This document shows, piece by piece, positions 4,501 through 40,546 of a stretch of 64,000 bases of DNA. The DNA lies in contig CAZJVT010000003.1 of the NCBI GenBank assembly GCA_964549935.1, forward strand, positions 78,634-142,633. The letters run 5' to 3'. The notes under the pieces were generated by a model. It was not told the DNA's origin, searched no databases, and saw nothing but the letters and a program-made list of their open reading frames with translations. A program made the position numbers and the translations under genes. The first letter of the stretch is position 1, and every line of letters starts with the position of its first letter. This DNA is from an uncultured Candidatus Saccharibacteria bacterium. Its GTDB lineage: Bacteria > Patescibacteriota > Minisyncoccia > UBA6257 > 1-14-0-10-44-23.

Positions 4501-4520
4501 TGCGAGAAGATCCTTCCCTG

Positions 4521-5346: not shown

Positions 5347-5439
5347 GGCGAAAACCCTGCGGCTCGGTGTCTGGTCCCGCCATTGTGCCACGCGGCGGCG
5401 AAAGCTCCAAACCTGTCGGCACATGCTTTTACAGCGTTC

Positions 5440-5900: not shown

Positions 5901-5919
5901 GATTAATACGAGACGCACC

Positions 5920-6576
5920 GTGACCATCCCCGGGAAATCCGACCGCGAGACGGTCATGGAAGCGCTCCTTCAGCGCATCCTCGGTCGTCTCGACCCTTCC
6001 ACCGGTTGCGTCGCCGATCTCGACGCCGCCTCCCTCGGCCTCGACGGCGCCGCCTCGAACAAGATCATGGAGCGGATCGAGGGATACGCCATGGCGGCCG
6101 AGACCTTGTGGAATGCCTATTACGGACCCGGATCCAATCCCGAAAGCGTCGAATGGTTCGATGTGCAGCAGGCACTCGCCTTCGCCGCCGCCGCCACCGG
6201 CCGCGGAAATCCGGACTTCGTGCCTGGTGCCGACAAGGCCCTGATCTCGATCTTCAATGGATCCAGGTGTGTCGAGACGATCGACATCACCGACGAGGTT
6301 GTCAGGCTCGACGCGACATCGCTCGTCGCCATGATCGCCGATCCGACGCTGTGCTTCGACCATCCGGTACTGGCGTTGAAGCTCGACCGATCGAGGCTCG
6401 ATGAACTGCGTCTTTCAAGCCAGAAGGTTTCCGACTTCCTCGGCACCGAAGATCCGACGGACGAGCTCATGGAGGCGGTCCGCGAGCGCTACGGAATCGC
6501 CGAGAGCGAGAAGCTCGTCTCCATCATCGATGCGATCGCCAGCCTCCCGGGCGGCCCGCCTGCGGTGACGATGTGA
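5920..6576 (+). CDS. Hypothetical protein (first gene of the helicase operon)
   Basis: 218-aa ORF with non-repetitive, acidic composition. It overlaps the next ORF by 4 nt. No recognisable motif. Confidence 0.5.
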   Translation: MTIPGKSDRETVMEALLQRILGRLDPSTGCVADLDAASLGLDGAASNKIMERIEGYAMAAETLWNAYYGPGSNPESVEWFDVQQALAFAAAATGRGNPDFVPGADKALISIFNGSRCVETIDITDEVVRLDATSLVAMIADPTLCFDHPVLALKLDRSRLDELRLSSQKVSDFLGTEDPTDELMEAVRERYGIAESEKLVSIIDAIASLPGGPPAVTM

Positions 6577-7481: not shown

Positions 7482-10265
7482 ATGCCACTCGATAACGTCG
7501 GCTCGTCCGATCCGACTTTCGCTACGGGCGATGGTCGTCGGAGATCTACGAGGCTGGGCCGCCGATCGAATCGGATCGCCCCGGACCCCCGTTATCAGGT
7601 CCAGGCGCTCGACGACATCGCCAGCACGCTGGCCGAGAACGATCGCGCAACCGCGGTCATGGCGTGCGGTGCCGGCAAGACGCTGGTTGCTCTGTGGACA
7701 GCCGAGCGCCAGAGCGCGCGCGTCATCCTTGTCCTGCTTCCGTCTCTGTCGCTCCTCAGCCAGACGCTGAAGACATGGAAGAGGGAGAATGTCTGGGGGA
7801 GCAGGTTCAGCTACATCTGCGTCTGCTCGGACGAGACCGTCGACGCCGGCACCGACGATCCGTCGATGGACGAAGGCTCGATTGATTTCCCGATCGACAC
7901 CGACCCAGCCGAGGTGAGGAAGTTCCTCAGGTCTCGCATCGACGACGTCAAGGTCGTCTTCTCGACCTACCACTCGGCATCGATCGTCGGCGAGGCCGCG
8001 GCCAAGCTGAAAGCGTTCGACTTAGGTGTTTTCGACGAGGCACACCGGACCGCCGGCGCCGCCGGCCGCTCCTTCGGCTTCGCTCTCTCTGACAGGAACA
8101 TTCGGATTCGCAAGCGCCTGTTCATGACGGCGACGCCGCGCCACGTTGATATCCGGCATCGCGATCGTGACGGTGACTTCTGCTCCCGGTCGATGGACGA
8201 CGAGGAGATCTACGGCCCACGCGCCTACACCCTCTCCTTCGCCAAGGCGGTGCGGCTCGGGATCATCTCACGCTACAAGGTCATCGTCTCGATGATCGAT
8301 AAGAAGATGGTCTCGGATTTTGCGCGCAAGCATGGAATCACTCTCGTCAAGGGCGATGCGATCGCTGCCACGAAGATCGCCAACCTGATCGCGATGCGCC
8401 AGGCGATCGGAGCGGTCGACGCGCGCAAGATCATCACCTTCCATGGCCGCGTTCAGCGAGCGAAGGACTTCGCCTCCGATCGTGACGACGGCATCGCACG
8501 CTATCTCGACGGCTTCGAGGTACATCACGTAAACGGCAAGCAGGCCAGTGGAGAGCGCGGCGGCATCATCCGGTCCTTCGCCGAAGCCGATCGCAGCCTC
8601 ATCACGAACGCCAGGTGCCTGACAGAAGGCGTCGACGTCCCGGCGGTCGACATGGTCGCCTTCATCGATCCCAAGCAGAGCCGGATCGACATCGCCCAGG
8701 CCGTCGGCCGAGCCATGCGTAAGCCGCGGGGCCCGACGAGGAAGATCTGCGGCTACGTGGTCATCCCGTTGTTCGCCGGCATGGACGGTGATGATCTTGA
8801 AGATGCGATCAAGGACGGCCGCTTCGACGCGATCGCCGAGGTCGTCAACGCGCTGCAAGAGCATGACGAGGAACTTGTCGAGATCATCAAGGGTATCCGC
8901 GAGCGGAAGGGCGCCGGCGAGAGTTCCTATGGCGGCGAGCTCGGTGACACGATCGAAGCAATTGGCCCTTTCGTGGATCTCGACAAGCTAGCGGCGAGCA
9001 TCGCGGTCGAGGTCGCTGACCGGATCGGTTCCGGCTGGGATGAATGGTATGGGCGACTGAAGAGTTTCGCTGAACGCGCAGGACATTGCAGCGTACCGAG
9101 AGATTACAGAGAGGGCGGATTTAATCTCTCACGGTGGGTTGCTTATCAGCGCCATGCCGCAAAGAAGCTGTCGCCGGATAAGCGGGCAAAACTCGACTCG
9201 ATTGGTTTTTCTTGGAATGTGCGCGCTGATGAGTTCGATAAGGGATATTCGGTCCTCGTGGCTTATCATGCTCGCGAAGGCCATACTCGAGTCCCCTCGC
9301 GTCACATGGAAAGTGGCTTTCGCCTGGGGTCTTGGGTCGCCTCCCGGCGCAAGCACTGCGACAGAATGTCGACTACCCAGAGAGCATCGCTCGACGCGAT
9401 CGGCTTCATCTGGGATCCGTTCGCCGAAGACTTCATGCATGGACTCAACCAGCTCGTTGCTTTCAAGGCGCGCACCGGACACTGCCGGGTACAGGATGGG
9501 TACAAGTCAGAGGGGTTCGATCTCGGAACCTGGGTAGGCACGCAACGCAGGAATCGAGATACCCTGTCCACGGACCGCAAAGCGAAGCTCGATGACATCG
9601 GCTTCATCTGGGATCCGTTCGCCGAAGACTTCATGCGCGGGCTCAACCAGCTCGCTGCTTTCAAGGCGCGCACCGGACACTGCCGGGTACACCCTAAACA
9701 CAAGGAAGACGGATTTAATCTCGGGGCCTGGGTAGGTACGCAACGCAGGAATCGAGATACCGTGACAGTTGACCGTAAGGCGAAGCTCGACGCGATCGGC
9801 TTCATCTGGGATCCGCTAGTCGAAGACTTCATGTGCGGGCTCGCCGCGCTTACTGCTTTCAGAGCCCGCAACGGCCATTGCCGATTGCCTGCAGGGCACA
9901 AGGAAGGTGAATTCAACCTCGCGAACTGGGTCAATAACCTGCGCGCACGAAATAGACGAAACAACTTGCCGGCAGATCGCAAGGCGATGCTCGATGGCAT
10001 CGGTTTCATCTGGGACCCACTGACCGATACCTTGATTCGAGGGCTCGCCCTGCTCAAAGCTTTCCAATCCACCAATGGCCACTGTCGGGTGCCTTTCAGC
10101 TACAAGGTCGACGAATTCAACCTTGGAACCTGGGTCTGGAAGCTACGCAAAAGGCGAGACCTGTCGCCTGACTTCAAGGAGGCGCTCGACAAAATCGGCT
10201 TCTATGAAAACATGACCTATGCCGCGGGAGTATCAGCCAACACATCTAAAGTCATGGCTTCATGA
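7482..10265 (+). CDS. Superfamily-2 DEAH-box helicase (ResIII-like N-terminus) with a C-terminal array of helicase-associated (HA) domain repeats
   Basis: Motif I AVMACGAGKTLVAL, motif II VFDEAHR, motif III MTATP, motif VI-like QAVGRAMR. The C-terminal 400 aa are six or seven roughly 66-aa repeats with W..W/LG.WV...R and G(F/H)IWDP signatures typical of HA domains. Confidence 0.75.
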   Translation: MPLDNVGSSDPTFATGDGRRRSTRLGRRSNRIAPDPRYQVQALDDIASTLAENDRATAVMACGAGKTLVALWTAERQSARVILVLLPSLSLLSQTLKTWKRENVWGSRFSYICVCSDETVDAGTDDPSMDEGSIDFPIDTDPAEVRKFLRSRIDDVKVVFSTYHSASIVGEAAAKLKAFDLGVFDEAHRTAGAAGRSFGFALSDRNIRIRKRLFMTATPRHVDIRHRDRDGDFCSRSMDDEEIYGPRAYTLSFAKAVRLGIISRYKVIVSMIDKKMVSDFARKHGITLVKGDAIAATKIANLIAMRQAIGAVDARKIITFHGRVQRAKDFASDRDDGIARYLDGFEVHHVNGKQASGERGGIIRSFAEADRSLITNARCLTEGVDVPAVDMVAFIDPKQSRIDIAQAVGRAMRKPRGPTRKICGYVVIPLFAGMDGDDLEDAIKDGRFDAIAEVVNALQEHDEELVEIIKGIRERKGAGESSYGGELGDTIEAIGPFVDLDKLAASIAVEVADRIGSGWDEWYGRLKSFAERAGHCSVPRDYREGGFNLSRWVAYQRHAAKKLSPDKRAKLDSIGFSWNVRADEFDKGYSVLVAYHAREGHTRVPSRHMESGFRLGSWVASRRKHCDRMSTTQRASLDAIGFIWDPFAEDFMHGLNQLVAFKARTGHCRVQDGYKSEGFDLGTWVGTQRRNRDTLSTDRKAKLDDIGFIWDPFAEDFMRGLNQLAAFKARTGHCRVHPKHKEDGFNLGAWVGTQRRNRDTVTVDRKAKLDAIGFIWDPLVEDFMCGLAALTAFRARNGHCRLPAGHKEGEFNLANWVNNLRARNRRNNLPADRKAMLDGIGFIWDPLTDTLIRGLALLKAFQSTNGHCRVPFSYKVDEFNLGTWVWKLRKRRDLSPDFKEALDKIGFYENMTYAAGVSANTSKVMAS
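9390..10200. repeat. Intragenic tandem DNA repeats of about 198 bp encoding the HA-domain array
   Basis: Near-identical stretches begin near 9397, 9597, 9795 and 9996. For example, cgatcggcttcatctgggatccgttcgccgaagacttcatgc occurs at about 9397 and about 9597. Identity is at the nucleotide level, not only the protein level. Confidence 0.7.
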
Positions 10266-11671: not shown

Positions 11672-12241
11672 ATGCAAAAGATTCCCCATCATCGTGAGCC
11701 TTCCAATCTCACCTCGCTGATCTCGCGCGTCGACCCTCTGTCGCTCCGCGTAATCGCGACCTACATCGAGGCCGGCCGCCGCGGCCGCAAGATCGACTTC
11801 CTCGTCCACCAGGCAATGGCCGAACATCACCTGGCCCTCCAGGGGTGGCGCTATGGCCGTGCCGGCGAGCATCTCGCGATCGAGATCCGTCGACGCCTTG
11901 CCAAGCCGCGCCTTATTCATGGCGTCCCGCGCTACAGCACGTCCAAGGACGCGCTCGACGGGATCGTCCGGCTTCTCCTCCCGCAGGCTTCCATTACATC
12001 GTCCTTCGGCGCCGGCCGCTCTCGCATCGTCGCCGAGACGACCTATGCGAACACGCGTGGCGAAGCCTACATGACCAAGGCGACGGTTCCTGCCAGCAAC
12101 GATCCGGCAGCGGAAGCCGCGGCACGATGCGGCGCTGTCCTGCGCCTGGTAGCCGACATGGCGGTCGAGCGGAGGCGCTTTGCCGACGAGCAGTCCGAAG
12201 ATCGCGGCCGGGCGCCGAAGAAGCGGAACCCTCGCTCGTGA
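11672..12241 (+). CDS. Hypothetical protein, paralog B of a tandem pair
   Basis: Shares RYSTSKDALDGIVRLLLPQASITSSF and AAARCGAVLRL blocks with 11082..11591. Confidence 0.5.
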   Translation: MQKIPHHREPSNLTSLISRVDPLSLRVIATYIEAGRRGRKIDFLVHQAMAEHHLALQGWRYGRAGEHLAIEIRRRLAKPRLIHGVPRYSTSKDALDGIVRLLLPQASITSSFGAGRSRIVAETTYANTRGEAYMTKATVPASNDPAAEAAARCGAVLRLVADMAVERRRFADEQSEDRGRAPKKRNPRS

Positions 12242-13095
12242 CCTGCCGCCTTCCATCGGTCGATCTCGACAAGCGATGGCTCGATCGTCGCGAACGCTGG
12301 GCGCGGCCCGACGTCGTCTTCGATCCCCGCGGCTATGCGGTCGAGGTCGTGCCTGAGCGTCTCGCCCGGGATCTCGTCCTGGCCCATCACTACTCGGGAT
12401 CCTTCCCCGCGGCTCGCCTCTCCGTCGGCCTCTTCCGCAAGTCGGGTCCGGCTGCCGCGGCGGAGCTCGCCGGCGTCGCCGTCTTCTCCGTTCCTATGTC
12501 CTCCGCGGTGATCCCGGCACGCGTCGGCATTCCCGCTGCCGAGGGTGTCGAGCTCGGCCGCTTCGTCTGCCTGCCCGAGGTCGCCTTCAACGGCGAGACC
12601 TGGTTCCTTCGCCGCGCGCTCGCCGCCCTCCGCGTCGAGAAGCGAGAGGTTCGCGCGGTGCTCTCCTATGCCGACCCCCTCGAGCGATGGACAGAGGGCG
12701 GCCTCCTCTGCAAGCCCGCCCATTACGGCACCATCTACCAGGCCGGGAACGCGTCCTTCATCGGCCGCGCCAAACCCAGCTTCGTCGTCATGACCCGTGG
12801 AGGCCAGGTGGTCTCCGGCCGCTCGCTCTCGAAGATCAGGACGCAGGCTCGCGGCCACGTCTATGCGAGCGAGCAGCTCGAGGCCGCCGGCGCCGATCCG
12901 CGCCGACCGCTCGAGGATCCGTCCGACTGGCTTCGCCGCGTGCTGGTCGAGCCCGCCTTCGTGAAGGTCCGTCACCCCGGCAACTACTGCTATGCGTTCG
13001 GGCTCGATCGCGCGGTGAACCAGAACCTGAAGCCGCGGGCGCTCGCCTACCCGAAGAAGCCGACCCAGGCGCCGGAACTGGCGGAGGCCGCCTGA
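12238..13095 (+). CDS. Hypothetical protein with conserved HHYSGSFP motif (possible Mom-like/acyltransferase-fold enzyme, uncertain)
   Basis: GTG start overlaps the upstream stop (GTGA). The ORF-track entry 11845..13095 is an upstream run-on in the same frame. The protein has the LAHHYSGSFPAARLSVGLF and YCYAFG motifs. Confidence 0.4.
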   Translation: MTCRLPSVDLDKRWLDRRERWARPDVVFDPRGYAVEVVPERLARDLVLAHHYSGSFPAARLSVGLFRKSGPAAAAELAGVAVFSVPMSSAVIPARVGIPAAEGVELGRFVCLPEVAFNGETWFLRRALAALRVEKREVRAVLSYADPLERWTEGGLLCKPAHYGTIYQAGNASFIGRAKPSFVVMTRGGQVVSGRSLSKIRTQARGHVYASEQLEAAGADPRRPLEDPSDWLRRVLVEPAFVKVRHPGNYCYAFGLDRAVNQNLKPRALAYPKKPTQAPELAEAA

Positions 13096-14488: not shown

Positions 14489-15721
14489 ATGGACCCCAGA
14501 ACCAATCCCTATGCGCCCGGCGCCGGCTCCCAGCCGCCCGAGCTCGCGGGTCGTGACGAGATCCTGGAGAAGGCCGCGACCGCGCTCGACCGCATCAAGG
14601 CCGGCAAGCAGGCAAGGAGCCTGGTCCTCCACGGCCTTCGCGGGGTCGGCAAGACCGTGCTGCTCAACAAGATCCGGCGCGAGGCCGAGGCACGCGACAT
14701 CCAGAGCGTCGTCATCGAGGCGCCAGAGCATCGCTCCCTCCCCGGGATCCTGGTGCCGGCGCTGCGTGCCGTGCTGATCCGTCTCGATCGCGTCGAGGCC
14801 ACGAAGGCTATCTTCGGCAAGGCCAAGAAGGCGCTCGCCGGCCTGGCGAAGGCCGCGAAGGTGAAATACGAGGACGTCGAGTTCGGTCTCGACTTCGAGG
14901 TCGAGGACGGCCTGGCCGACTCCGGCGACCTCGAGCACGACCTGGGCGAGCTCTTCATGGCGGTCGGCGAGGCTGCCAAGGCGCGCAACACGGCGATCGT
15001 CCTCTACATCGACGAGGTGCAGTATGTGCCCGAGGAGCAACTGGCGGCCCTGATCTCCGCGCTGCATCGCGCGGCGCAGGAGATGCTGCCGGTGACCATG
15101 CTCGCCGCCGGCCTGCCGCAGATCCTGGGGCAGATGGGCAAGGCCAAGTCCTATGCCGAGCGTCTCTTCGAGTTCACCGAGATCGACAGCCTGGGCGCGG
15201 AGTCGGCGAAGAAGGCGCTCTGCAAGCCGGCGGAGGCCGAGAAAGTCACGTTCGAGCAGGGCGCGATCGACGAGATCCTCGAGCAGACCAAGGGGTATCC
15301 GTACTTCCTCCAGGAATGGGGCAAGCACAGCTGGAACATCGCGGCATCCTCGCCGATCACCGCGGCGAACGCGCGCGAGGCGACCAAGTCGGCGATCGCC
15401 GAGCTGGATGCGAGCTTCTTCAGCGTGCGCCTCGATCGCCTGGCGCCGGCGGAGAAGCTTTATCTCCGGGCCATGGCCGAGCTCGGGCCCGGACCGCACC
15501 GCTCGGGCGATATCGCCGCGAGCCTGGGCAAGCCGGTCAACCTCGTCGCACCTACGAGAAACAGCCTCATCGCCAAAGGTATGGTGTTCAGCAAGGCGCA
15601 TGGCGACACCGCCTTCACCGTGCCGCTCTTCGATGGCTTCATGAAGAGGGCCATGGTGTTCAAGCCCGAGGACGGACATAAGCGCAAGCGCGCGGCCGAG
15701 CCGAAGCCGCCGGGCATGTAG
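14489..15721 (+). CDS. AAA_16-type (Orc1/STAND-like) P-loop ATPase with C-terminal winged-helix-like region
   Basis: N-terminus NPYAPGAGSQPPELAGRDEIL then Walker A LHGLRGVGKTVLL. Walker B VLYIDEVQ. Confidence 0.65.
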   Translation: MDPRTNPYAPGAGSQPPELAGRDEILEKAATALDRIKAGKQARSLVLHGLRGVGKTVLLNKIRREAEARDIQSVVIEAPEHRSLPGILVPALRAVLIRLDRVEATKAIFGKAKKALAGLAKAAKVKYEDVEFGLDFEVEDGLADSGDLEHDLGELFMAVGEAAKARNTAIVLYIDEVQYVPEEQLAALISALHRAAQEMLPVTMLAAGLPQILGQMGKAKSYAERLFEFTEIDSLGAESAKKALCKPAEAEKVTFEQGAIDEILEQTKGYPYFLQEWGKHSWNIAASSPITAANAREATKSAIAELDASFFSVRLDRLAPAEKLYLRAMAELGPGPHRSGDIAASLGKPVNLVAPTRNSLIAKGMVFSKAHGDTAFTVPLFDGFMKRAMVFKPEDGHKRKRAAEPKPPGM

Positions 15722-15795: not shown

Positions 15796-16290
15796 ATGCG
15801 CAGCCCCGTCCTCCTCCTCGGTACCGTCGCCGCACTCGCCCTTCTCGCCGGCGTTGCCGACGCCGCCGATCTTCCCTGCCCCGAGGGCACCTACCCGATC
15901 CACCGCGCGGCCGGAACCGGCCCGAGCTCGATCGAGCTCAAGCGCTACCCGGGCGAATGCTCGGTCAAGGTCGGCAACGAGTGGATGACGGTTCTTCCCG
16001 GCATGGTGAAGGCCCTCGCCGGAACCGATTTCCAGCCGGGCGCCAAGGGATCGGGCCAGGCGATGGGCACCGGCGGCGCCTTCGACTTCGAGGCCAAGGT
16101 CCTTTCGAAGGAGGAGATCGACGTCGCCGGGGCGAAGGTCGAGACCGTGAAGATCGAGGCGACCTCTTCCCGGGTGAAGGACGTCTGGACTGCCTGGTAC
16201 GTGCCGGCCACGGGCATGGTGGTCCGCTATCGCTTCGTGGGTCCCTACCAGTCCTCGGACTGGCAGGTGACGAAGATGCCGGCGCGCTGA
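15796..16290 (+). CDS. Exported hypothetical protein (signal peptide)
   Basis: MRSPVLLLGTVAALALLAGVADAAD is signal-peptide-like. A CTATCTATAG -10-like box lies upstream. Confidence 0.5.
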   Translation: MRSPVLLLGTVAALALLAGVADAADLPCPEGTYPIHRAAGTGPSSIELKRYPGECSVKVGNEWMTVLPGMVKALAGTDFQPGAKGSGQAMGTGGAFDFEAKVLSKEEIDVAGAKVETVKIEATSSRVKDVWTAWYVPATGMVVRYRFVGPYQSSDWQVTKMPAR

Positions 16291-16313
16291 GCGATCGAGC
16301 AGGGAGAGCTGTC

Positions 16314-16583
16314 ATGACCAAGCCGGCCTTCAGCTCTCCCTACATCGAGAACGAGCAGCAGGAGCGCATCTACCAGCTGGCGAAGCGCCGCCGGGACACC
16401 GCCATCCGTCGGGCTGAAGCGAAGCGCGAGCGGCAGGGACAGGCCGAGCTCACGCGACACAACAGGCGCCTCAGGATCATCTCTGACGTTTGCGAGCACA
16501 CAAAGAGGCTCGCGCAAGAGGAATACGAGGCTTCGGAGATGATGGCCTTCTCGACGGCGTCCGGCAGCGCCGAGAAGGCGTGA
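16314..16583 (+). CDS. Small basic hypothetical protein
   Basis: ATG at 16314 with GGGAGAG RBS. Arg/Glu-rich, helical-looking. Confidence 0.35.
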   Translation: MTKPAFSSPYIENEQQERIYQLAKRRRDTAIRRAEAKRERQGQAELTRHNRRLRIISDVCEHTKRLAQEEYEASEMMAFSTASGSAEKA

Positions 16584-16632
16584 TAGCGATCCATCCGGAC
16601 GACACCACAGCAGACGATGCCCGAAGGTTACG

Positions 16633-16974
16633 ATGATCGGCATCAGGAAGGTCACCACGCACCATCACGGTCGCTCGATCGAGTGGAACGAGAGCGTCAT
16701 CCGCATCTCGGCGATCGTCGACGGCCTCGCCGTCTCCATCCAGAAGTTGCACAAGTCGACCTTCCAGAAATCCCGCGGCGGCAAGCTTGCGAAGTCCGAT
16801 GCTCCCCGCTATCGCGTGCTCGTCGACAACATCTTCGTCCAGCCCGGCTGGGGCTTCAGGCGAGATCTGAAGCAGGCGAAGGACGACGGTGTCGCGCTGG
16901 CGATCGGAACCGCTGCCGCGGTCGCCGAAAGCAGGAAGCAAACCCGAAAGAAGAGCGCCGCGACCAAGACCTGA
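16633..16974 (+). CDS. Hypothetical protein
   Basis: 113-aa ORF with plausible composition. Confidence 0.4.
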   Translation: MIGIRKVTTHHHGRSIEWNESVIRISAIVDGLAVSIQKLHKSTFQKSRGGKLAKSDAPRYRVLVDNIFVQPGWGFRRDLKQAKDDGVALAIGTAAAVAESRKQTRKKSAATKT

Positions 16975-16998
16975 CGCGGGTCACCTCAAAACCGCGGC

Positions 16999-17523
16999 TC
17001 AGGCACCCATCGCCATCGCCGGCGTACGCTCAGGCGATTTCACCATCGCCTCTATCTCCGCTCCATGCTTCTCGATCAGCCAGGCCGCGATCGAGGAGCA
17101 GACCTTCCATTTCCAGCCCTGGATCTCCTCGGACCTGGCCTTGGCGCCGATCGCGAGGCAGACCTTGAGGGCGTCGAGCGGCCCCGAGACATGTCCGGCT
17201 TTCGGCGACTCAGGCAGCCTGATGTTGAAGAGCGCGGCGGGGTCGGCTTCGACAGCCAGGTAGAGATCGTGGTCAAACCGGGCATCGACGGAAGCGCCAT
17301 GCTCGGAGACGAAGACCGCAAGCGTGTTGATGGCGTCCTTCCGTTGCTCGGCATCGAAGGCAAGATGCCCTTTCGCCAAGACCTCCGCCTGGATGTGGGC
17401 GATGCTCGCCGCATGAAGCACGACGGCCAGGGCGCCATCGACGGCGGTGCCGCCGCTTCGCTCCGACAGCAGAAGCAGGTCGTCGCGAGTCAGCTCGTCT
17501 TCGTAGGTTTTGGTCATCGCCAA
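16999..17523 (-). CDS. Hypothetical acidic protein, paralog 2 downstream of Fic
   Basis: The C-terminal block AAWLIEKHGAEIEAMVKS matches AAWLLKEHGATIESEVKT of 17528..18049. Same operon. Confidence 0.5.
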   Translation of the reverse strand: MAMTKTYEDELTRDDLLLLSERSGGTAVDGALAVVLHAASIAHIQAEVLAKGHLAFDAEQRKDAINTLAVFVSEHGASVDARFDHDLYLAVEADPAALFNIRLPESPKAGHVSGPLDALKVCLAIGAKARSEEIQGWKWKVCSSIAAWLIEKHGAEIEAMVKSPERTPAMAMGA

Positions 17524-17527
17524 TCTC

Positions 17528-18049
17528 CTAGCCGCCCATGGCCGGACCGATGTCGATTGTCTTCACCTCGCTCTCGATCGTCGCGCCGTGCTCCTTGAGC
17601 AGCCAGGCAGCTACAGCCGGAGCGACCACATCGCGAATGCTCCGCTTGTCGTCGTCACCTGAGGTGGCCACCTCGCCGGCTGCAAGCTCCAGACAGATCG
17701 CGAGAGCCTTCATCGGCGTCATCGTCCCACCATCTTCCGGGGTCGGCGCCGGCGAGTGCTCTATGTCCATGATCGAGGACGGATCGGAGCGGACGATCTC
17801 TACGAGGGCCGGCCCGAAGCGCTTGTCGAGCGCCTCGCCATGGTTGGTGACGAAATCGACGAGCGTTCTGATCGCCTCCTCCTGCCACTTCAGCTGGTCG
17901 ACCAGGCTGTCGTCGCCATGGTTGTCTTCCGGATCCATCTGGTTGCCCTGCGCGGCTTCGGCCACCGCCTCGAGAGCATCGGAGATCATCGTTCCGCTGT
18001 CGCTCGGCGGAAATCCGGCGGGGCGCCGCGGGGCCTCTTCGAGACTCAT
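17528..18049 (-). CDS. Hypothetical acidic protein, paralog 1 downstream of Fic
   Basis: Its start overlaps the Fic stop (ATGA). Paralogous to 16999..17523. Confidence 0.5.
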   Translation of the reverse strand: MSLEEAPRRPAGFPPSDSGTMISDALEAVAEAAQGNQMDPEDNHGDDSLVDQLKWQEEAIRTLVDFVTNHGEALDKRFGPALVEIVRSDPSSIMDIEHSPAPTPEDGGTMTPMKALAICLELAAGEVATSGDDDKRSIRDVVAPAVAAWLLKEHGATIESEVKTIDIGPAMGG

Positions 18050-19746
18050 GGTTCCAATCCCTTCTGTTTCCTGGAAGATGGATCTGCCGGCTCCGGCGTC
18101 TTGCCGCTGACCGGAATTCGGTGGTCCATCGCAACGGCGACTGCGCGCTCGGCCGCTGCGACCTGGGTGTCGTCGAGATCGGCGAACAGGCTCTTGCGCT
18201 TCTTCTTCGAGAGCGCTCCGCCGTTCTCGTGGATCAGCTTTGCGAGAAGCTCGGCATTATCCTTTGGCATGCCCGTCGCGCCGCGTACGCCGGCGACGGC
18301 GTCGTCGAATCCCTCGATGAAGGCGATCTCGTGGGGCAGGTCGCGCTCGACCGTCTGCTCGACGCACCGGTAGAGGAATTCGGTCTGCCGGGTGAGATCC
18401 ATGTAGCGGTAGTGACGGCCGCGGGCCTCGCCGCTTCCGGCGCCCTTGACCTTGAGGGCCCCGTCGTCGTCGAGCGACCATGACAGGCGATCCAGAAGCG
18501 GCCGCGAGAAGCCCTCGAGGGCGCGGTCGTAGCCATCCATGTCGCGAAGCATCGCCGCCGATACCGGGAGGATGCCGCCCTGGGGCGTATAGCCGGTCGA
18601 GGCCAGGGTCGAATGCACCAGGAAGCGGCTGGTCCGGCCGTTGCCGTCCTCGAAGGGGTGGATGTAGACGAGCCCGAACTTGAGCAGGGCGGCGACGACG
18701 ACCGGATCCGTGCCGGCGCCCGCCAGGCGATTGGCCTGCGCCACCAGGCCGCGCATCATGCCGCCGACCTGCGCCGGATCCGGGCTGATGTAGTCCACCA
18801 CCCCGCGGTTGCCGCCGCCGCTCCGCTTGAAGACGTAGTTCGACGTGTTGCGGTAGCCTGTCCTGCGATCGGTGCCGGCGAGAACCTCGGCGACGACGTT
18901 CTGGATCTCGTGCTCGGATAGCTGGGGCGCGCCGCCTCGTCGGCCCTGGGACCCGGCGGATCGCGCCAGCATCTGGACGAAGCGCCGCTCCTTTTCCGGA
19001 CTGGGCTTCTCCTGCTCGATCGCGAAGCTGTCCCTGGTCTCCTTGGCGAAGAGCCAGCCGGCGGCGCGGCGCGCGGTCTCTGGATCGGCTTCAGCGACGA
19101 TGCGGCGGGCACGGCCGGACAGGTCCAGGGCGCGCATCGACTCGATCTCGCCGGTGATCCACACCATCGGGCACCATTCGGGCGTGCCAGGCATGTTGTC
19201 GACGACATGGTGGCGGCGCGATCTCGTGCCCATCGCCGGCGCCACCTGCATCTTCACGTCGATCGCCGGGACGTAGAAGCCCTCGATCGCGCTGTCGGGC
19301 AGCTCGAGCTGGCGGCCGGTGAGCCATTCGGCGAGGAACCAGGCGCGCCTGGCATGCCGGCCGGTCGGTTCCGACCGCACCCAGTCGGCGACATGACGGC
19401 CGGCGAGATCGGAGGCTGGGGATGCCTGGAAGAGGTCGGCGAGGACAGCGAGGTTCACGCCTTCGTTGCGAAGGGCGAAGTCAAGGTGCCAGGCGAGGAA
19501 CCGCGGGTCCTCGCCGCCGCCGAGAGCGTCCGGCTTCGGTGCCTGGTGCGGACGATGGCGGATCCAGGTCCTGCCGCTGATCGGGTCCTCGATCTCGGCC
19601 TTCTTCCAGCTGTCGCCGGTCGAAGCGCAGCGCAGCGGCCGATCGACGATCGGGTCGAGGCCGTAGGCCGCGATCAGGGCCGCATAGCCGAGGGGGACGG
19701 TGCCGGTCGGGGATTCCATGACCATCGCAGGATCGTTATGGAGCAC
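18046..19746 (-). CDS. Fic/Doc-family protein (probable AMPylase) with a long N-terminal domain
   Basis: Canonical Fic motif HPFEDGNGRTSRFL. The start is uncertain (GTG at 19746, or ATG at 19722/19716). The antisense ORFs are Arg-rich. Confidence 0.75.
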   Translation of the reverse strand: MLHNDPAMVMESPTGTVPLGYAALIAAYGLDPIVDRPLRCASTGDSWKKAEIEDPISGRTWIRHRPHQAPKPDALGGGEDPRFLAWHLDFALRNEGVNLAVLADLFQASPASDLAGRHVADWVRSEPTGRHARRAWFLAEWLTGRQLELPDSAIEGFYVPAIDVKMQVAPAMGTRSRRHHVVDNMPGTPEWCPMVWITGEIESMRALDLSGRARRIVAEADPETARRAAGWLFAKETRDSFAIEQEKPSPEKERRFVQMLARSAGSQGRRGGAPQLSEHEIQNVVAEVLAGTDRRTGYRNTSNYVFKRSGGGNRGVVDYISPDPAQVGGMMRGLVAQANRLAGAGTDPVVVAALLKFGLVYIHPFEDGNGRTSRFLVHSTLASTGYTPQGGILPVSAAMLRDMDGYDRALEGFSRPLLDRLSWSLDDDGALKVKGAGSGEARGRHYRYMDLTRQTEFLYRCVEQTVERDLPHEIAFIEGFDDAVAGVRGATGMPKDNAELLAKLIHENGGALSKKKRKSLFADLDDTQVAAAERAVAVAMDHRIPVSGKTPEPADPSSRKQKGLEP

Positions 19747-19790
19747 GCAAAATCGTTATGGAACACGCAAATTCATTATGAAGACGAGAG
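19732..19790. repeat. 20-bp tandem direct repeats at the Fic 5' end/promoter
   Basis: ATCGTTATGGAGCACGCAAA (19732..19751), ATCGTTATGGAACACGCAAA (19752..19771) and a partial third copy TTCATTATGAAGACGAG. Confidence 0.6.
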
Positions 19791-19922
19791 GAGAAAGCGT
19801 CAATGGATAGATGGATTAATCGCGTAGCTATAGAAGATGCTCTCCTGAAACCGCAATTTTTTGACGCCAATTTCGCATCCGCTCGCCTTCTTGGTTTCTG
19901 TGTGCTCTGCTAAACTAGGTGG

Positions 19923-22900
19923 ATGCACGATAAATCAACCGTCAGGCCCTCCCTCCCCGCCGTCCAGATGGCTACAGGCAGCGGTTCTGGGCCGGATGTC
20001 GAGGCCATGCCGCTCCCGGAGCTCCAGCCGGGCCAGTATTGGCGTGCCAACAGGGAGATGCCGGAGGGCGACCGCGGCCGGGAGTGGTCGGGGGCCTGGG
20101 AGGTCGGCTTTTCCTACCTGGTCAAGGACCTGAAGGTCGTCGACGGGCGCCTCCATACCGTCGTCCTGCATCCCCATCCGCTGAGCGACTACCAGCACGA
20201 CACCGAGATGCTGGCCCGGCATTTCTTCGCCGCGTTCGAGCGCGATCTCGATCCGGACGTGTCCCGTGCCGCCGACATGAAGGCGCTGCAGGAACGCATC
20301 GGGCAGATCAACCAAGAGATCGCCGACGGCCCGAGGCTGGAGGATGTCTCGACCGCCGCCCAAAGGCGCCTGATCGAAGCCGGCACGGCAACCCCTCGGC
20401 CGGAGGCGGCCGGCGCAGGCGCTCTTTCCATCAGCGAGACCGATATCCAGAAGGCGCAGAAGCGTTCGGGCGCCCTGCTGGAGGTCAGCAAGAAGAAGGC
20501 CGCCTGGCTCCAGCAGCGGGTCGAAGCCGTCGGCGAGACCGCCAGCCGGATCGCTCTCTTCGGCCGCGAGAAGGCGGAGACCGCCCTTGCCCAGGTCAAG
20601 GACGTGCTGCGATACGCGCAGCACCTCGAGGAAGGCATCGAGACGCTCGGCCTCTACACCGGCAAGGACGTGCAGGTGCAAATGCTGTGCGACGGGCCGC
20701 TCGCCTCCGACGATGCGCCGCTTTCGATCTTCCAGCGCCGTCTCTACATGGACGAGGAATTCCTTGTCCATCTGGCGGAGGGTGGCGCCACCTGGCGTGA
20801 CGTCGAAAGCTTCGGCAAGGCGCTCGGTGAAGACGAGACGCTGCTGGACCGCATCATCCCGTCGGAACGCGGCGTCGTCTGCATGCGCTATCGGCGCCAC
20901 GAGAAGCAGATCGATCTCGGGGAATTCAAGACGGTGGCCGAGGCTTTCAGCGCGGGCCTCAAGGCGCAGGAAGAAGAGGCCCGCAACAGGACGACTTTCC
21001 TCCTGATCCGAGACGGCCGTCGCGTTTGGCAGGTCTGGTCCGAGATCTCGACCGACAACAGCCCGCGCCTGTTCCCGACGATGAAGGAAGTCGACAAGCC
21101 GTTCGTCGGATGGGGCTGGCACGGAGAGGAGAAGCAGCGGATCGACCTCGAGGACATCCGGTTCTCCGACAAGCTCGAGGAAAGTCGGCGGATCCAGCTG
21201 CACTATCGCCGTCTGCTGATCCTGCTCTGGGGACTCGACGATCGCGAGAACCTGGTCGGCCTCCGCCGCTCGGGTGATACGCGCAAATTCACCGACCTCT
21301 CCTTCCAGAAGGACCGCTTCGTCTTCATTTCCGACGATGACGAGGAGCGGCTTCTCAGCACCGGCCGCCCGTCTTTCAGAAAGTTCGCCGCCGAGCACAA
21401 CGCCATGCTTCGTTCCGGCTCCCGTGTGCTTTGCCTCTGGGGAAACCTACTCACGAGCGATACCGCGCCCGGCTGCGTGAAGTCGATCGATCGACGGTCG
21501 AGCCACGGTCCGCGCGACGAGGTCAGGCTGTGGCCCGACAACGACACCGACATCCTGATTGCCAGGAAGGATGGCGACGAGATCGTCGTCGACGTCGAGG
21601 CGTCGGGCGAGAAGCGCAGCTGGATGTACGACCGATACGAGACCTCGGGCCAGACGCGTCGCATCAAGGCGCGCGTGAGCCTGACCGCCTACAGGGAAGC
21701 AAGCATCGGCTTCCTTGTGCTCGACGCGATCAAGGCCGAGGATTTGAAGTTCTACTGCGAGTCGCGACTCGAGCGGCAGAGCTATCTCCACTACCTCTCC
21801 ACGTTCATTGCCGCCCGCAAGCATGTCGAAACCGTGCGCGAGGCCGAAGTCGAGTCCCGCGATGTGCTCGCCAATGGCCTGAAGGCGGCGGGCTTGTTCG
21901 ATGACGAGCGTTGTGCCGGCGTCCTCGACGAAGCGATCCTCGCTTGGCGCGCACGGAACCGCGGCAAGGCGTTGCCCGGTCCGCTCGATCCAGAATGGAA
22001 GGCTGCCGCGACCGCCATCTACGGCTTCTGCTGGATCGCGCTCGGCAAGGATATCGACCTGGAGCCGATCGCGACCGACCTCGCGGCGAAGGGCGGCCGC
22101 AAGCCGCTGCGCCTGGTGCTGACAGGCAACAACCAGGTGATCCTCTATGCGTCCTCGACGGCGAACGAGATGCAGGACGCGCTCGGGAACTGGCCATGGG
22201 TCACCCGGATCGCTTGCCGGCGACTGCGGAAGGCACCATGGCTGGCGGTCGAAGGAGAAAGCTTCGCCATCCTCCCGGCGCGCGCCGCGGACGAGCGCGT
22301 GCTGACCGAATGGCCGGAGGCGACGAAATGGATCGACCTCGTCGATCACGACAAGATCGGCCCCGATGGCAGGCGCGAGCTCGTTGCCTGGCTTAGAGAC
22401 GCCGCCGCGGCTGCTCCTCAGCTGATCGCGCCCTCCCGCCATCTGGTCGAGACCATGCTGAAGGAGGCGACCGAGCTCAGCCGCCTGAACTCGAAAGGAA
22501 TGGTGAGGCGGCCCGACGTCGTGATCCCGTTCGCGATCGTCAGGAAGAAGGAAGTGGAATTCCGCCAGCCGGACGCATGTCGTGTCCTCGCAATGCGCAT
22601 CGATGCCTTCTGGTGGTGCTGGCGCCATGGGCTTGCCGCGGAGACCGAAGAGGCTCTGAGGGGGCGTTACAGCAGGCCGGGGACGCATGTCCGGCAGCTT
22701 CGCGGCGAAAACGATCCGGAAGGCGAGGATCGCGCCTGGTCGGGAGACTTCGAGGCGTCGCTGGTCTCGTTGTCGTCCAAGGATGTGGTCAGGGCTCTCG
22801 ACGATGGGCAGAGCCTCCCGAACCTCATCGATGCCCATGTCTACGACAGCGTTCCGATCAACGAAGGCCACTTCGAAGCCCTGCAGGACATCCTCCGCGA

Positions 22901-23165
22901 TGGCCGTAGCAACTGGATGTTCGGGGAGAGGTTCGCCTACCGCAAGAATCGATCGAAGCCTGCTGCCTGGGACTTCGTTTTGAAGATCAAGGACGCCTGG
23001 GCGCTCGCCGTTCCGTTCAGCGACAGCTCCCGACGTCCCGGGAAGCCGGCCCCGAAGCCGGAAGCGGATGACGAGGCGGAGCAGGAGGACGCCAGACCGG
23101 CCGAGCAGGACGATGAGGATGATCAGGATGACGGGCCCGCAGCGCAGGAGGATCTGAATCCATGA
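19923..23165 (+). CDS. Large hypothetical protein (1080 aa) with an acidic C-terminal tail
   Basis: Continuous ORF with natural composition. Both long antisense ORFs are Arg/Gly/Pro-rich. -35/-10-like TTGACG...GCTAAACT lies upstream. No motif recognisable by eye. Confidence 0.6.
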   Translation: MHDKSTVRPSLPAVQMATGSGSGPDVEAMPLPELQPGQYWRANREMPEGDRGREWSGAWEVGFSYLVKDLKVVDGRLHTVVLHPHPLSDYQHDTEMLARHFFAAFERDLDPDVSRAADMKALQERIGQINQEIADGPRLEDVSTAAQRRLIEAGTATPRPEAAGAGALSISETDIQKAQKRSGALLEVSKKKAAWLQQRVEAVGETASRIALFGREKAETALAQVKDVLRYAQHLEEGIETLGLYTGKDVQVQMLCDGPLASDDAPLSIFQRRLYMDEEFLVHLAEGGATWRDVESFGKALGEDETLLDRIIPSERGVVCMRYRRHEKQIDLGEFKTVAEAFSAGLKAQEEEARNRTTFLLIRDGRRVWQVWSEISTDNSPRLFPTMKEVDKPFVGWGWHGEEKQRIDLEDIRFSDKLEESRRIQLHYRRLLILLWGLDDRENLVGLRRSGDTRKFTDLSFQKDRFVFISDDDEERLLSTGRPSFRKFAAEHNAMLRSGSRVLCLWGNLLTSDTAPGCVKSIDRRSSHGPRDEVRLWPDNDTDILIARKDGDEIVVDVEASGEKRSWMYDRYETSGQTRRIKARVSLTAYREASIGFLVLDAIKAEDLKFYCESRLERQSYLHYLSTFIAARKHVETVREAEVESRDVLANGLKAAGLFDDERCAGVLDEAILAWRARNRGKALPGPLDPEWKAAATAIYGFCWIALGKDIDLEPIATDLAAKGGRKPLRLVLTGNNQVILYASSTANEMQDALGNWPWVTRIACRRLRKAPWLAVEGESFAILPARAADERVLTEWPEATKWIDLVDHDKIGPDGRRELVAWLRDAAAAAPQLIAPSRHLVETMLKEATELSRLNSKGMVRRPDVVIPFAIVRKKEVEFRQPDACRVLAMRIDAFWWCWRHGLAAETEEALRGRYSRPGTHVRQLRGENDPEGEDRAWSGDFEASLVSLSSKDVVRALDDGQSLPNLIDAHVYDSVPINEGHFEALQDILRDGRSNWMFGERFAYRKNRSKPAAWDFVLKIKDAWALAVPFSDSSRRPGKPAPKPEADDEAEQEDARPAEQDDEDDQDDGPAAQEDLNP

Positions 23166-29488: not shown

Positions 29489-31969
29489 ATGAGCACCGCC
29501 AGTGCAGCCCATCCAGGAAGAACGAACGGGGATGCCATGCCCGAGAACAAGACCCCGGAAGCCGCGGCGACTGGCTTCGACCAGCTGAACGAGTCCCAGC
29601 AGCGGGCAGTCCTCGCCCCTCTGGACAAGCCCTCCCTGGTCCTGGCGGGGCCCGGCACCGGCAAGACCAAGACCCTCGTCGAGCGCTGGATCCACCTCAC
29701 TCGGGAAGGGGTCCGCCCGGCGCGGATCATGACGACCACCTTCTCGAAGGACGCAGCGAGCGAGATGAAGGAGAGGATCTCGAGCTCCGCGCGCATCGCC
29801 ACCGACAAGCTGCCCATTTCCACGCTCCATTCCGCGGCCTTCAGCCTCCTTCGCCAGTCGGCCGGCCTTCATGGCGTTCCCGCCAAGGTCTCGGTCGCGG
29901 ACGAGGCGACGTCCAGGGGCATCCTGTACGACCTCAGTATCTTCGCCCGCGAGGACGACGACATCCTCGACCAGTTCAGCAGATGGAAGGACCGTCTGGT
30001 GACGCCGGAGATGGCGATCGCCGACGCCGAGAAGGCGCGCGACAAGCGGATGGAGGAGATCGCCCGCCACTACGCCACCTACCAGGCCGAGCTGGCGCGC
30101 CGGGGTCTGTTCGATTTCGGCGACCTCATTCTCGAGGCGGTGAAGGCGCTCGAGGGTTCGGACCGGCTCCGCGAGCAGTGGCAGGGGCGCTACGACCACC
30201 TCCTGCTCGACGAGTACCAGGACATCAATCCGGCCCAGGATCGCTTCATCAATTGCCTCTGGACCCCGGGCAAGGGGCTCTGGGTCGTCGGCGACGACGA
30301 CCAGTGCATCTACGCGTTCCGCTCGGCGGACTCCAATTTCATCCTCGACTACGCGGCCCGCTACGGCGAGGCGATCGGCGAGGAGGTCGAGGTCTTCAGG
30401 CTCGATCGCAACTATCGCTGCTCGCCTTCGATCATGTCGGCGGCCTCGGCCGTCATCGCCAACAACGAGCGCCGGCTGCCGAAGCAGATCGTCGCCACGC
30501 GCGACTACGACAACGGCGTCTTCCTGCATGGTTTCGACAACGCCCATGACGAGGCGCGCTTCGTCGCCCGCCAGATCCGGATGCTGTTGGACGGCGGCTT
30601 CAAGCCGAAGCAGATCGCTGTCCTGATGCGGGCAGGCTTCGTTGCCGTCTACATGCAGGCCGCGCTCCAGAAGGAAGGCATCCCCGTCGTCATCAAGGGT
30701 GCCGCTGATTTCTGGGGGTCGGCCGAGATCAAGGCCGCCCTCGGTGCGCTCCGCCTTTCCGTCGACCCGAAGGATACCGCCGCCGGCGGCCTTTGCCCTG
30801 CCGGCAAGCGCGGCGAGAGCCTGAAGAAGGCGGCAATGGACCTCGCCGACGAGAAGGACCTCGCCTGGCCGCAGCGTGTCGCCGCGATCAAGGCCGCGCT
30901 CGATGCGATCCCGCCTCGCGTGGGCGGCGAGGAACGTCGGATCCAATGGGACGAAGGCGTCGCCGCGGCCTGTCGCATCGCGATCGATCTCGGGAACCTC
31001 GACGCTCTCCTAAAGGAAGTTCAGGCACAGCAGCGCAAGGAGAAGGTCGACGAGTCGGAGGCGGTTCCTCTCTCGACGATCCACGGCGCCAAGGGCCTGG
31101 AATGGGACACCGTCTTCGTCGTCGGCGTCGAGGACCAGCTTCTCCCCCACAAGCGGGCGGAGGACATCGAGGAGGAGCGCCGGCTCTTCTACGTCGCCCT
31201 GACGCGCGCCATCCGGCATGCCTGGGTGACCTATGCGCTCGAGCGCGGCGAGGACACGACCGCCGCGTCCCGCTTCATCGCCGAGATGCTGCCCGGCCTC
31301 GAGCCGGGAAAGCTGACGGCATCCGGCCGCGCCAGGGACATGATGGTCGAGCTGATGGCGGCCCGCCGCCAGGCCAGGGCGGATTATCCTGAAGAGAGGC
31401 GGCCGGCCGACGGCGCTGCCGATCGCGGTCGGGCCGAGCCCGGCCGTCAGGAGGCGGGCTTTCCGGTCCACGACGAGATCGAGGCGATGATCCGCGGGGA
31501 AGCGGATCGGAAGCCACCGCAGGCGAAGGCCGTCCGGCCTCCCCGTGCCGGGGGCTTTGCCGCCATGCGCAACGACACCCCGCCGCGCCGCGCGGCGACG
31601 GATGTCGCCAGGATCCATGCGGATCGCGCCCCGCCGCCGCCGACGATCGACCTCCCTGCGTCCCGAGAGTCTTCCGCCATCACCGTGCCCGGCGCCCCGG
31701 TCCGCGTCGCGAAGCCGGAAGCCCTGCAGCGATACCTCGAGGGGCTGAGGAAGGCGCCCGCATCGGGCCAGCCTTGGGACGAGCAGGCGACGGAATTCCT
31801 CAGGCAGTCCTTCCGCCGGCGCCCCGCCGCCGAGATCGCCCGCCAGCTGGGCCGCACCGAGGCGAGCGTCGCCTACCGCCTCCTCGGCATCGGCCTGATC
31901 GACGAGAACGAGTGCCAGCTCATGCTTCGCAACATCGAGCAGACCGGGACGCCTTCGCCGACGGCCTAG
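29489..31969 (+). CDS. UvrD/Rep-family superfamily-1 DNA helicase with C-terminal HTH-like extension
   Basis: Motif I LAGPGTGKTKTL, motif II LLLDEYQDINPAQ, motif III VVGDDDQCIYAFRSA, motif IV NYRCSPSIM, motif V TIHGAKGLEWDTVFVVG, motif VI YVALTRA. Confidence 0.8.
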   Translation: MSTASAAHPGRTNGDAMPENKTPEAAATGFDQLNESQQRAVLAPLDKPSLVLAGPGTGKTKTLVERWIHLTREGVRPARIMTTTFSKDAASEMKERISSSARIATDKLPISTLHSAAFSLLRQSAGLHGVPAKVSVADEATSRGILYDLSIFAREDDDILDQFSRWKDRLVTPEMAIADAEKARDKRMEEIARHYATYQAELARRGLFDFGDLILEAVKALEGSDRLREQWQGRYDHLLLDEYQDINPAQDRFINCLWTPGKGLWVVGDDDQCIYAFRSADSNFILDYAARYGEAIGEEVEVFRLDRNYRCSPSIMSAASAVIANNERRLPKQIVATRDYDNGVFLHGFDNAHDEARFVARQIRMLLDGGFKPKQIAVLMRAGFVAVYMQAALQKEGIPVVIKGAADFWGSAEIKAALGALRLSVDPKDTAAGGLCPAGKRGESLKKAAMDLADEKDLAWPQRVAAIKAALDAIPPRVGGEERRIQWDEGVAAACRIAIDLGNLDALLKEVQAQQRKEKVDESEAVPLSTIHGAKGLEWDTVFVVGVEDQLLPHKRAEDIEEERRLFYVALTRAIRHAWVTYALERGEDTTAASRFIAEMLPGLEPGKLTASGRARDMMVELMAARRQARADYPEERRPADGAADRGRAEPGRQEAGFPVHDEIEAMIRGEADRKPPQAKAVRPPRAGGFAAMRNDTPPRRAATDVARIHADRAPPPPTIDLPASRESSAITVPGAPVRVAKPEALQRYLEGLRKAPASGQPWDEQATEFLRQSFRRRPAAEIARQLGRTEASVAYRLLGIGLIDENECQLMLRNIEQTGTPSPTA

Positions 31970-31988
31970 GTCAATCGAGGAGCAGTCG

Positions 31989-32441: not shown

Positions 32442-32530
32442 TCCGGCGTTGCCGATCCGCGATCGAGGCCGAGACTCCTCTGGGCGCTTTCTTCGTTCCT
32501 CTATAGAATGGTGGCATCACTCTTTTATCT

Positions 32531-37606: not shown

Positions 37607-37618
37607 TCGGAGATCCGG

Positions 37619-39994: not shown

Positions 39995-40108
39995 ACGGCG
40001 CACCGCCCGGGAACAAAACGGATTCTCCCGAATGTTACAAACCTGTATGCTGTTGGTTATGCGTTTATCTTCGACCAGTGACTAGGAAACGAGCAGCGAT
40101 ACCAGCCC

Positions 40109-40537: not shown

Positions 40538-40546
40538 GAGACGGAC

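Follow-up and report, generated by a model that had tools for sequence, protein, structure and literature searches.

A predicted autoregulated class II Fic gene followed by two acidic paralogs on a conjugative-type element

Introduction

How might a Fic enzyme be controlled when it shares an operon with two acidic proteins and when direct repeats lie across its promoter? This question is raised by a small module (~2.8 kb) in a 64-kb stretch of contig CAZJVT010000003.1 from an uncultured Candidatus Saccharibacteria bacterium; we refer to the whole analyzed stretch as the window, and positions are counted from its first letter. The module is a tight operon on the minus strand, in which a Fic gene is followed by two paralogous genes, A and B, and a 20-bp direct repeat spans the promoter and the leader (Table 1). 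Class II Fic proteins make up the majority of bacterial Fic enzymes, and their control and biological roles are mostly unknown (PMC9755527). Here, we compared the operon with related loci and with Fic proteins of known structure. From the comparison, we predict an autoregulated Fic of class II that is accompanied by novel accessory proteins; the tripartite operon is a rare variant.

Results

Operon layout and gene starts

A sequence-only reading of this DNA had proposed a canonical Fic gene and two acidic paralogs in one operon, and this was confirmed by Pfam, the catalytic motif HPFEDGNGRTSR, BLASTP, and gene spacing. The lengths given there, 566 amino acids (aa) for Fic and 173/174 aa for the paralogs, required some revision. 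The longest Fic open reading frame (ORF; 18046..19746) begins at a GTG and has 566 aa; the ATG at 19725, which gives 559 aa, is the better start, being used by public gene calls on identical contigs and lining up with the N-termini of Fic relatives that are 83% and 70% identical. Paralog B has 174 aa from an alternative TTG and 172 aa from its better ATG. A gap of 10 nt separates paralogs A and B, with no promoter-like or terminator-like site between them, and B adjoins a convergent 113-aa gene across a gap of 24 nt (16975-16998).

Table 1. Positions of the operon features and of neighboring genes in the window.
Feature	Position	Strand	Description
Fic gene	18046..19725	minus	559 aa from ATG; ~190-aa N-terminal extra domain, class-II-type inhibitory helix, Fic core, C-terminal helical (winged helix-turn-helix-like) region
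Acidic paralog A	17528..18049	minus	173 aa, isoelectric point (pI) 4.28; start overlaps Fic stop codon (ATGA)
Acidic paralog B	16999..17517	minus	172 aa from ATG, pI 5.31; AGGAG 8 nt upstream
Inhibitory-helix motif S233-F-A-I-E237-Q	19012..19029	minus	family alignments; family consensus SFAIEG
Catalytic Fic motif HPFEDGNGRTSR	18625..18660	minus	residues 356-367; regular expression on translation
Predicted sigma-70-type promoter of operon	19775..19803	minus	-35 TTGACG (19798-19803), 17-nt spacer, -10 CATAAT (19775-19780)
Direct-repeat array, putative operator	19723..19780	minus	20-bp period; copy 1 CATAATGAATTTGCGTG includes -10 box; copy 2 CATAACGATTTTGCGTG; degenerate copy 3 CATAACGATCCTGCGATG ends in Fic ATG
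Helicase gene	7482-10265	plus	927 aa; DEAD/ResIII helicase followed by six 'helicase associated' HA domain copies, E 4.6e-103
Mom-like gene	11845-13095	plus	416 aa; Mom-family domain, E 4.8e-21 (phage Mu Mom-like DNA-modification family)
ATPase gene	14489-15721	plus	410 aa; AAA_16/STAND-like
1080-aa gene	19923-23165	plus	divergent from Fic
Run of large genes	29489-42868	plus	UvrD-like helicase (826 aa); 1691-aa strawberry-notch-like helicase (AAA_34 + Helicase_C_4); 791-aa protein without match; topoisomerase III-like protein ending in DUF5710
RNA-ligase-domain gene	54248-55393	plus	381 aa
Primase-like gene	59194-60690	plus	498 aa; DnaG-type zinc ribbon

The Fic protein and its inhibitory helix

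The Pfam Fic family (PF02661) was matched with an E-value of 1.5e-13 (51.8 bits versus a cut-off of 24). The catalytic sequence fits HPFx[D/E]GN[G/K]R, and 81 family members show no variation in its H, P, F, D, G, N, G, and R or in the final R. PADLOC profile PDC-S24 matched over the full length (E 7.2e-144, 478 bits, Fic residues 17-542 against profile positions 5-491 of 497), and the PADLOC SoFic model matched the Fic core (E 3e-21). With the NCBIfam SoFic equivalog NF046030, the protein scored 23.7 bits versus a cut-off of 550; it is SoFic-like in architecture and is not a SoFic ortholog. An AlphaFold2 model of high confidence (predicted local distance difference test [pLDDT] 91, predicted TM-score [pTM] 0.91) has the Fic fold, with 39 PDB Fic structures matched by Foldseek at E <= 0.001. 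The best of these were SoFic (3eqx/3zec), CbFic2 (8cil), CccR (7xux), and 7cb8. SoFic, CbFic2, and CccR all align nearly full length with the model, SoFic over 359 columns of a chain of ~365 residues, and CbFic2 with the best target-normalized TM-score (0.63 over 374 columns). The PDB entry 3eqx is labeled 'Fic domain containing transcriptional regulator'.

Alignments of 25 and 81 family members revealed an inhibitory-helix segment ~120 residues ahead of the catalytic His, with the family consensus KETRSSFAIEGE. S233 is kept in 80 of the 81 members and E237 in all of them. Both residues, in SxxxE spacing, lie 119 residues before the catalytic His in the same chain, as in class II Fic enzymes. 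The residue after the Glu is more variable (G 55, R 15, H 6, Q 2, N 2, S 1), and the window protein has Q238 where the class II motif has G or N. From these alignments, we assign the protein to the class-II-type Fic enzymes, with a putative intramolecular N-terminal inhibitory helix of its own. Such a helix counts against an antitoxin of the inhibitory-helix type; the sequence-only reading had itself named a built-in helix as one half of what would speak against its proposal, and the conserved Ser and Glu correspond to that half.

The '370-aa N-terminal domain' of the same reading turned out to be merely the distance to the catalytic motif. The stretch before the inhibitory helix comprises ~215 aa, the first ~190 of which form an extra domain that contains invariant R126 and R127 in a segment PTGxxARRAWF. 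The extra domain had no PDB sequence match and belongs to no Pfam family.

Relatives of ~500 aa are abundant, with 253 proteins at E <= 1e-20 among 8,000 candidates scored and 257 plasmid records. The family (PDC-S24) is usually a stand-alone gene and is often found on plasmids. Our literature search found no paper naming PDC-S24 and no experimental report of phage protection.

Direct repeats over the Fic promoter

The sole promoter-like site in 16400-20200 was TTGACG-17-CATAAT (10 of 12 matches). Tandem Repeats Finder reported an array at 19732-19780 (period 20, 2.5 copies, 89% matches, score 77). Read on the gene strand, the array has three units, CATAATGAATTTGCGTGTTC, CATAACGATTTTGCGTGCTC, and CATAACGATCCTGCGATG, the last of which ends in the Fic ATG. 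An array at the promoter had been noted in the earlier reading as two and a half copies; its position held, while the 'half copy' proved to be the -10 box and a third, degenerate copy runs into the ATG. The array overlaps the -10 box, fills the short leader, and reaches the start codon; like a CccR-type operator, it lies over the promoter of the Fic gene itself. The 17-nt repeat core CATAAYGANTTTGCGTG occurs twice in the window versus 0.23 expected, a count reached by none of 100 shuffles; both copies are in the array and none is elsewhere in the 64 kb. In an alignment of five loci, TTGACGCTT and CATAATGA were invariant. Moreover, the -35, the -10, and two full repeat units are invariant in the related loci L003/L004 (Fic 83% identical) and L006 (70%); the intergenic DNA has otherwise diverged. 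Retention of the repeats amid diverged DNA, together with their position at the promoter, fits a regulatory role.

Repeat arrays across the Fic family

The same kind of array, with a sequence that differed per locus, was found upstream of family members that lack paralogs. Examples are GTAAYYGATTTTGGAAGAT in five copies (L007), GGTGATnnnTTTTCAC (L011 and L013), GTAAYCGTTTTTCTTG (L019), CGTTTTTCACC in six copies (L033), TAATAnTTTTACCAG (L036), and RTAATCGATTTTGCGC (L040). Tandem Repeats Finder alone found repeats in 8 of 33 upstream regions, and it was replaced by k-mer statistics because the copies are dispersed. By these statistics, 15 of the 30 loci, which come from many phyla, have a 10-mer repeated 4-7 times upstream of Fic; no more than 2 of 30 dinucleotide shuffles attain such a count. 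The usual distances between copies are 20, 30, or 50 nt, the last copy often overlaps the Fic ATG, and many of the arrays span promoter elements and extend over 200 nt upstream.

An unbiased 6-mer count over the 33 upstream regions placed TTTTCA first (37 versus 8.9 expected, z 9.9; its reverse complement occurred twice), followed by TTTTTC and TTTCAC. Core words were found at 3.27 per 250 nt on the sense strand upstream of Fic, versus 0.34 on the antisense strand and 0.39 elsewhere in the same loci; this ~8-fold, strand-specific enrichment is indicative only, the words having been chosen post hoc from the same data. The motif varies by lineage (TTTGCGTG, TTTTGGAAG, TTTTCTTG, TTTTACCAG, or TTTTCAC), and Fic is the only gene common to the repeat-bearing loci. 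Judged from these comparisons, the repeats of the window are a local version of a family-wide operator-like element.

With Fic as the one gene in common and a motif that varies between lineages, binding of Fic to its own operator array is the simplest interpretation. A lineage-specific motif also argues for a dedicated, co-evolving binder rather than for a universal host factor such as DnaA. We consider Fic itself to be the most likely repeat binder. The paralogs are unlikely to be repeat-binding regulators, given the same arrays upstream of members without them. The suggestion of autoregulation in the sequence-only reading fits the promoter position and the conservation in relatives, though probably not with the paralogs as binders.

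Two side observations concern the Fic start and the Fic C-terminus. In many members, the start codon lies inside the last operator copy (L022, L016, L026, L039; …TTTTCATGG, …ATTTCATGG), as it does at 19723-19740 in the window. At Fic residues 503-515 (window ~18181-18219, minus strand), the sequence LSxRAR goes mostly with operators that end in TTTTCA(C/T). Where it reads LSx(K/R)(K/R)R (the window, L003, L006, L007, L012, L019, L020, and L036), the operators have other 3' halves (TTTGCGTG, TTTTGGAAG, TTTTCTTG, TTTTACCAG). This pairing of a C-terminal helix with the operator 3' half may point to a DNA-recognition element, and it is confounded by phylogeny.

The acidic paralogs

Paralogs A and B are 31% identical over 154 aa (BLASTP, E 1e-19). 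Their net charges are -20 and -8, respectively, and acidity holds throughout the paralog family (pI 4.05-5.3). Within each protein, a ~55-aa module consisting of a helix, an acidic loop, and a helix is duplicated in tandem (hhalign of the N- versus the C-terminal half, probability 97%, E 6e-11), and the AlphaFold2 model of paralog A (pLDDT 83) is confident and all-helical. No match was found in Pfam, NCBIfam, PADLOC, or PHROG, and Foldseek with the model found no match in the PDB (best E 0.17, TM < 0.3) or among viral structures. Neither homology to nor a shared fold with ArdA/Ocr was found, acidity being the only common trait.

The paralog family is extremely rare. A HMMER search of 1.84 billion representative proteins with a profile of A and B returned 20 proteins at E <= 0.001, of which four were strong matches (A, B, and two from L006), and word-indexed searches returned one and four proteins. 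No relative was found by tblastn against 72,556 plasmids or in a viral contig collection. A first metagenome scan found none, and a second yielded three matches, two of which were new distant loci. Among the loci of the Fic family, the paralog hidden Markov model (HMM) matched the window genome, L003/L004/L005 with a single copy, and L006 with two copies in reversed order, and none of ~30 other full-length loci, which bears out the earlier impression that the tripartite arrangement is atypical. The Fic-linked clade thus comprises three related lineages only. In all three, a paralog directly follows Fic, and the genes further downstream differ.

Identity between the window and L003 is 93% for the AAA_16 ATPase, 84% for the Mom-like protein (over its domain), 83% for Fic, 75% for the 113-aa gene, 68% for a 164-aa gene, and 65% for the 1080-aa gene, versus 44% for the ortholog of paralog B (E 2e-51). 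On these comparisons, the paralogs are a fast-evolving, copy-number-variable, and lineage-specific addition, and the Fic gene with its putative operator resembles the other members of a widespread family that normally occurs as a single gene.

The spot downstream of the paralogs is itself variable. In place of window 16975-16998, L003 has three extra genes (4451-6330), encoding a 113-aa membrane-like protein, a 251-aa protein, and, on the other strand, a 242-aa protein; none of them matches anything in the window. MAFFT had suggested the 251-aa ORF as a third paralog, but neither BLAST (E-values of 0.005 to 2.6) nor the paralog HMM, which gave no hit, recognized it as such.

Mobile-element context

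By its gene content, the window seems to be a portion of a conjugative-type element. The 1080-aa protein encoded divergently from Fic had no Pfam, NCBIfam, PADLOC, or PHROG match, and its homologs (~28-31% identity over ~78% of the length) are present in 1,244 plasmid records, 1,083 of them typed conjugative and most from Klebsiella, Enterobacter, and Escherichia. Such proteins are very common on conjugative plasmids and have no assigned function. The run of large genes at 29489-42868 is typical of conjugative elements. Relatives of the AAA_16/STAND-like ATPase, the best-conserved gene product of the region, occur on 98 plasmids (identity up to 68%), and the protein weakly matches PADLOC mad8 and PDC-S01. 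Most ORFs of the window had no family assignment, and no tRNA genes were found in it.

Discussion

We propose a composite explanation to which we give not quite an even chance: the locus would be a self-contained Fic module on a conjugative-type mobile element, with Fic as repeat binder and autorepressor and the paralogs as modulators of Fic. Fic would be an AMP-transferase-type enzyme of the SoFic/CccR/CbFic2 architectural class, extended by an N-terminal domain. Binding of the Fic protein to the phased direct repeats would repress its own transcription, as CccR does, and would keep the amount of a potentially toxic enzyme low. The two paralogs, presumably a recent lineage-specific addition, would be translated from the same mRNA as Fic and would act on it in a way that does not involve the inhibitory helix, functionally like the AS1 protein encoded downstream of SoFic. 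That the paralogs bind and modulate or neutralize Fic is our preferred, if tentative, reading of them. It is favored by the ATGA overlap, which suggests translational coupling, by retention of a paralog after Fic in three lineages, and by the precedent of SoFic and AS1.

Several observations weigh against this explanation. With regard to Fic as the binder, the N- and C-terminal regions gave no consistent Pfam match and no Pfam helix-turn-helix (HTH) in the 81 members, about half of the 30 loci fall below the threshold of the repeat statistic, the repeat of the window clade (TTTGCGTG) differs from the commonest family core TTTTCAC, and the core words of the density count were, as noted, picked after the fact. 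With regard to the paralogs as partners, the Fic family normally works without them, and the strict (S/T)xxxE(G/N) was absent from A and B in a motif search. A tie between Q238 and the presence of partners is ruled out by the 24 of 81 members, stand-alone ones included, that have neither G nor N at this position. Adjacency to Fic in three related elements could also be plain shared ancestry. Lastly, the distant relatives of the paralogs are single-copy genes, and the Fic HMM found nothing within 6-8 kb of them at eight independent loci, which tells against the suggestion of the sequence-only reading that the paralogs could act as antitoxin-like partners. Being single-copy and never beside Fic, these relatives indicate an ancestral function that was not Fic-specific.

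The same solitary relatives make it a real possibility, only slightly behind the partner reading, that the paralogs are independent cargo of the mobile element that uses only the Fic promoter, perhaps an anti-defense or host-interaction factor and, given the acidity of every family member, perhaps a mimic of nucleic acid or protein; Fic and its operator would then work as in the stand-alone members. One distant relative (P0133, at L097) lies beside a strawberry-notch-like helicase and a topoisomerase III, in the type of element seen in the window. Faster divergence of paralog B than of its neighbors (65-93% identical), along with changes of copy number and order, is typical of genes under diversifying pressure, and acidity with rapid divergence is typical of conflict genes on mobile elements. 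The variable spot with extra genes in L003 and the self-sufficiency of the Fic relatives also suit this explanation. However, free cargo would hardly be expected to have its start coupled to the Fic stop codon or to stay directly after Fic in every lineage, and the paralogs resemble no known anti-restriction or DNA-mimic family (Pfam, PHROG, PADLOC, PDB, and viral structures) and are absent from the plasmid and viral collections searched.

It is improbable, in our view, that the repeats are something other than a Fic operator, be it a site for another factor (DnaA or the divergent 1080-aa protein), an element of the mRNA leader, or replication iterons. The commonest family core TTTTTCAC does resemble the relaxed DnaA box TTWTNCACA, but the variation of the motif by lineage argues against a universal host factor, and Fic is the sole gene that the loci have in common. 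Copies 2 and 3 would be transcribed if the predicted promoter is used, and the window Fic start, like that of several family members, has no clear Shine-Dalgarno sequence, both of which would suit a role in the leader. An RNA-level role was nevertheless judged unlikely, since the leader does not fold stably (z +0.86, with 162 of 200 shuffled sequences folding equally well) and matched no Rfam family; arrays that continue beyond 200 nt upstream, across promoter elements, speak against it as well. An iteron-type replication origin was likewise judged unlikely: no Rep-like or replication initiator gene flanks the array, no AT-rich region adjoins it (GC content 0.64-0.66 in 2-kb windows across 16001-22000, at that resolution), and the array coincides with the promoter.

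A class-I-like toxin-antitoxin pair, in which a paralog supplies the (S/T)xxxE(G/N) helix and, as antitoxin, binds the repeats to autoregulate, agrees with the operon linkage and with the S-D-A-L-E of paralog A (residues 23-27, corresponding to SEALE, the most conserved motif of the wider family), but it is scarcely credible and largely refuted by sequence, given that the motif inspection of both paralogs and the family alignment revealed no strict inhibitory-helix motif in either, that the SxxxE of A is not kept among relatives (GALAV in B, GALAL in the L003 ortholog, A-EALE in P0123, SEALD in P0124), that Fic has an inhibitory Ser and Glu of its own, that members without paralogs have the repeats, and that the paralogs lie downstream of Fic, unlike the upstream partner in VbhA/VbhT, with no small ORF carrying the motif found upstream.

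Returning to the preferred composite, the most useful outcome is the putative family-wide phased-repeat operator and a new orphan protein family, rather than the tripartite layout. If the repeats are Fic operators, self-repression on a lineage-specific operator would hold for a family on hundreds of plasmids and in many phyla, and the pairs of operator and protein could be mined to locate DNA-recognition residues. If the paralogs are instead independent cargo, they would represent a new fast-evolving gene family of conjugative elements. In a bolder and, taken jointly, unlikely version of our proposal, the ~500-aa Fic proteins would be sequence-specific DNA-binding AMP-transferases that sit on their own phased operators and couple activity to DNA occupancy, as in CbFic2, and the duplicated acidic helical proteins would be new, motif-independent partners that neutralize or retarget Fic, their fast divergence reflecting an arms race on a conjugative element.

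Comparison with known systems

The operon resembles class I FicTA modules (VbhT-VbhA, FicT-FicA) in combining a Fic enzyme and small protein(s). The class I antitoxin has ~60 aa, is encoded upstream, and supplies (S/T)xxxE(G/N). In the window, by contrast, Fic itself contains the motif, and the partners lack it, are encoded downstream, and are three times as large. The window Fic matches the PDC-S24 profile over its full length; PDC-S24 members are typically stand-alone and often plasmid-borne, and PADLOC lists the system as a single-gene candidate only, whereas the window has two extra genes in the same predicted operon.

CccR of Yersinia pseudotuberculosis (PDB 7XUX) is a class II Fic protein that represses its own gene via a C-terminal HTH, binding repeats near the -35 and -10, and for which no cognate immunity gene was found (PMC9755527). 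It is like the window Fic in having repeats at its own promoter and in the Foldseek match, and its half-site AGATAATCAT resembles the 5' half of the window motif (ATAAYC/G). However, CccR is shorter (380 aa), with no counterpart of the ~190-aa N-terminal domain, its operator consists of two inverted 10-bp boxes 26 bp apart rather than phased direct repeats, and it is a type VI secretion system effector with no acidic partners. CbFic2 of Coxiella burnetii (PDB 8CIL) likewise carries a C-terminal HTH, and its AMPylation and deAMPylation activities are under the control of DNA binding (PMC10628234). It gave the best target-normalized TM-score with our model (see above), but it is a secreted effector that acts on host histone H3, has no partners, and has not been described with an operator at its own promoter or with DNA-sequence specificity.

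SoFic (PDB 3EQX, 3ZEC) shares with the window protein a class II Fic core with a C-terminal domain, a listing as a single-gene defense system, and a gene immediately downstream. The window Fic departs from it in its low equivalog score and its additional N-terminal domain. In the anti-phage defense systems SoFic/EcSoFic, the small downstream gene (AS1, 47 aa) neutralizes the toxicity of a class II Fic despite the intramolecular helix, indicating that such enzymes can still need a downstream antitoxin (PMC12249575). AS1 is single-copy and its mechanism is not known, whereas the window has two internally duplicated acidic helical proteins of 172-173 aa. Next to SoFic-AS1, the paralogs offer a second candidate case in which a class II Fic depends on a separate partner in spite of its own helix, here with a new fold-level family.

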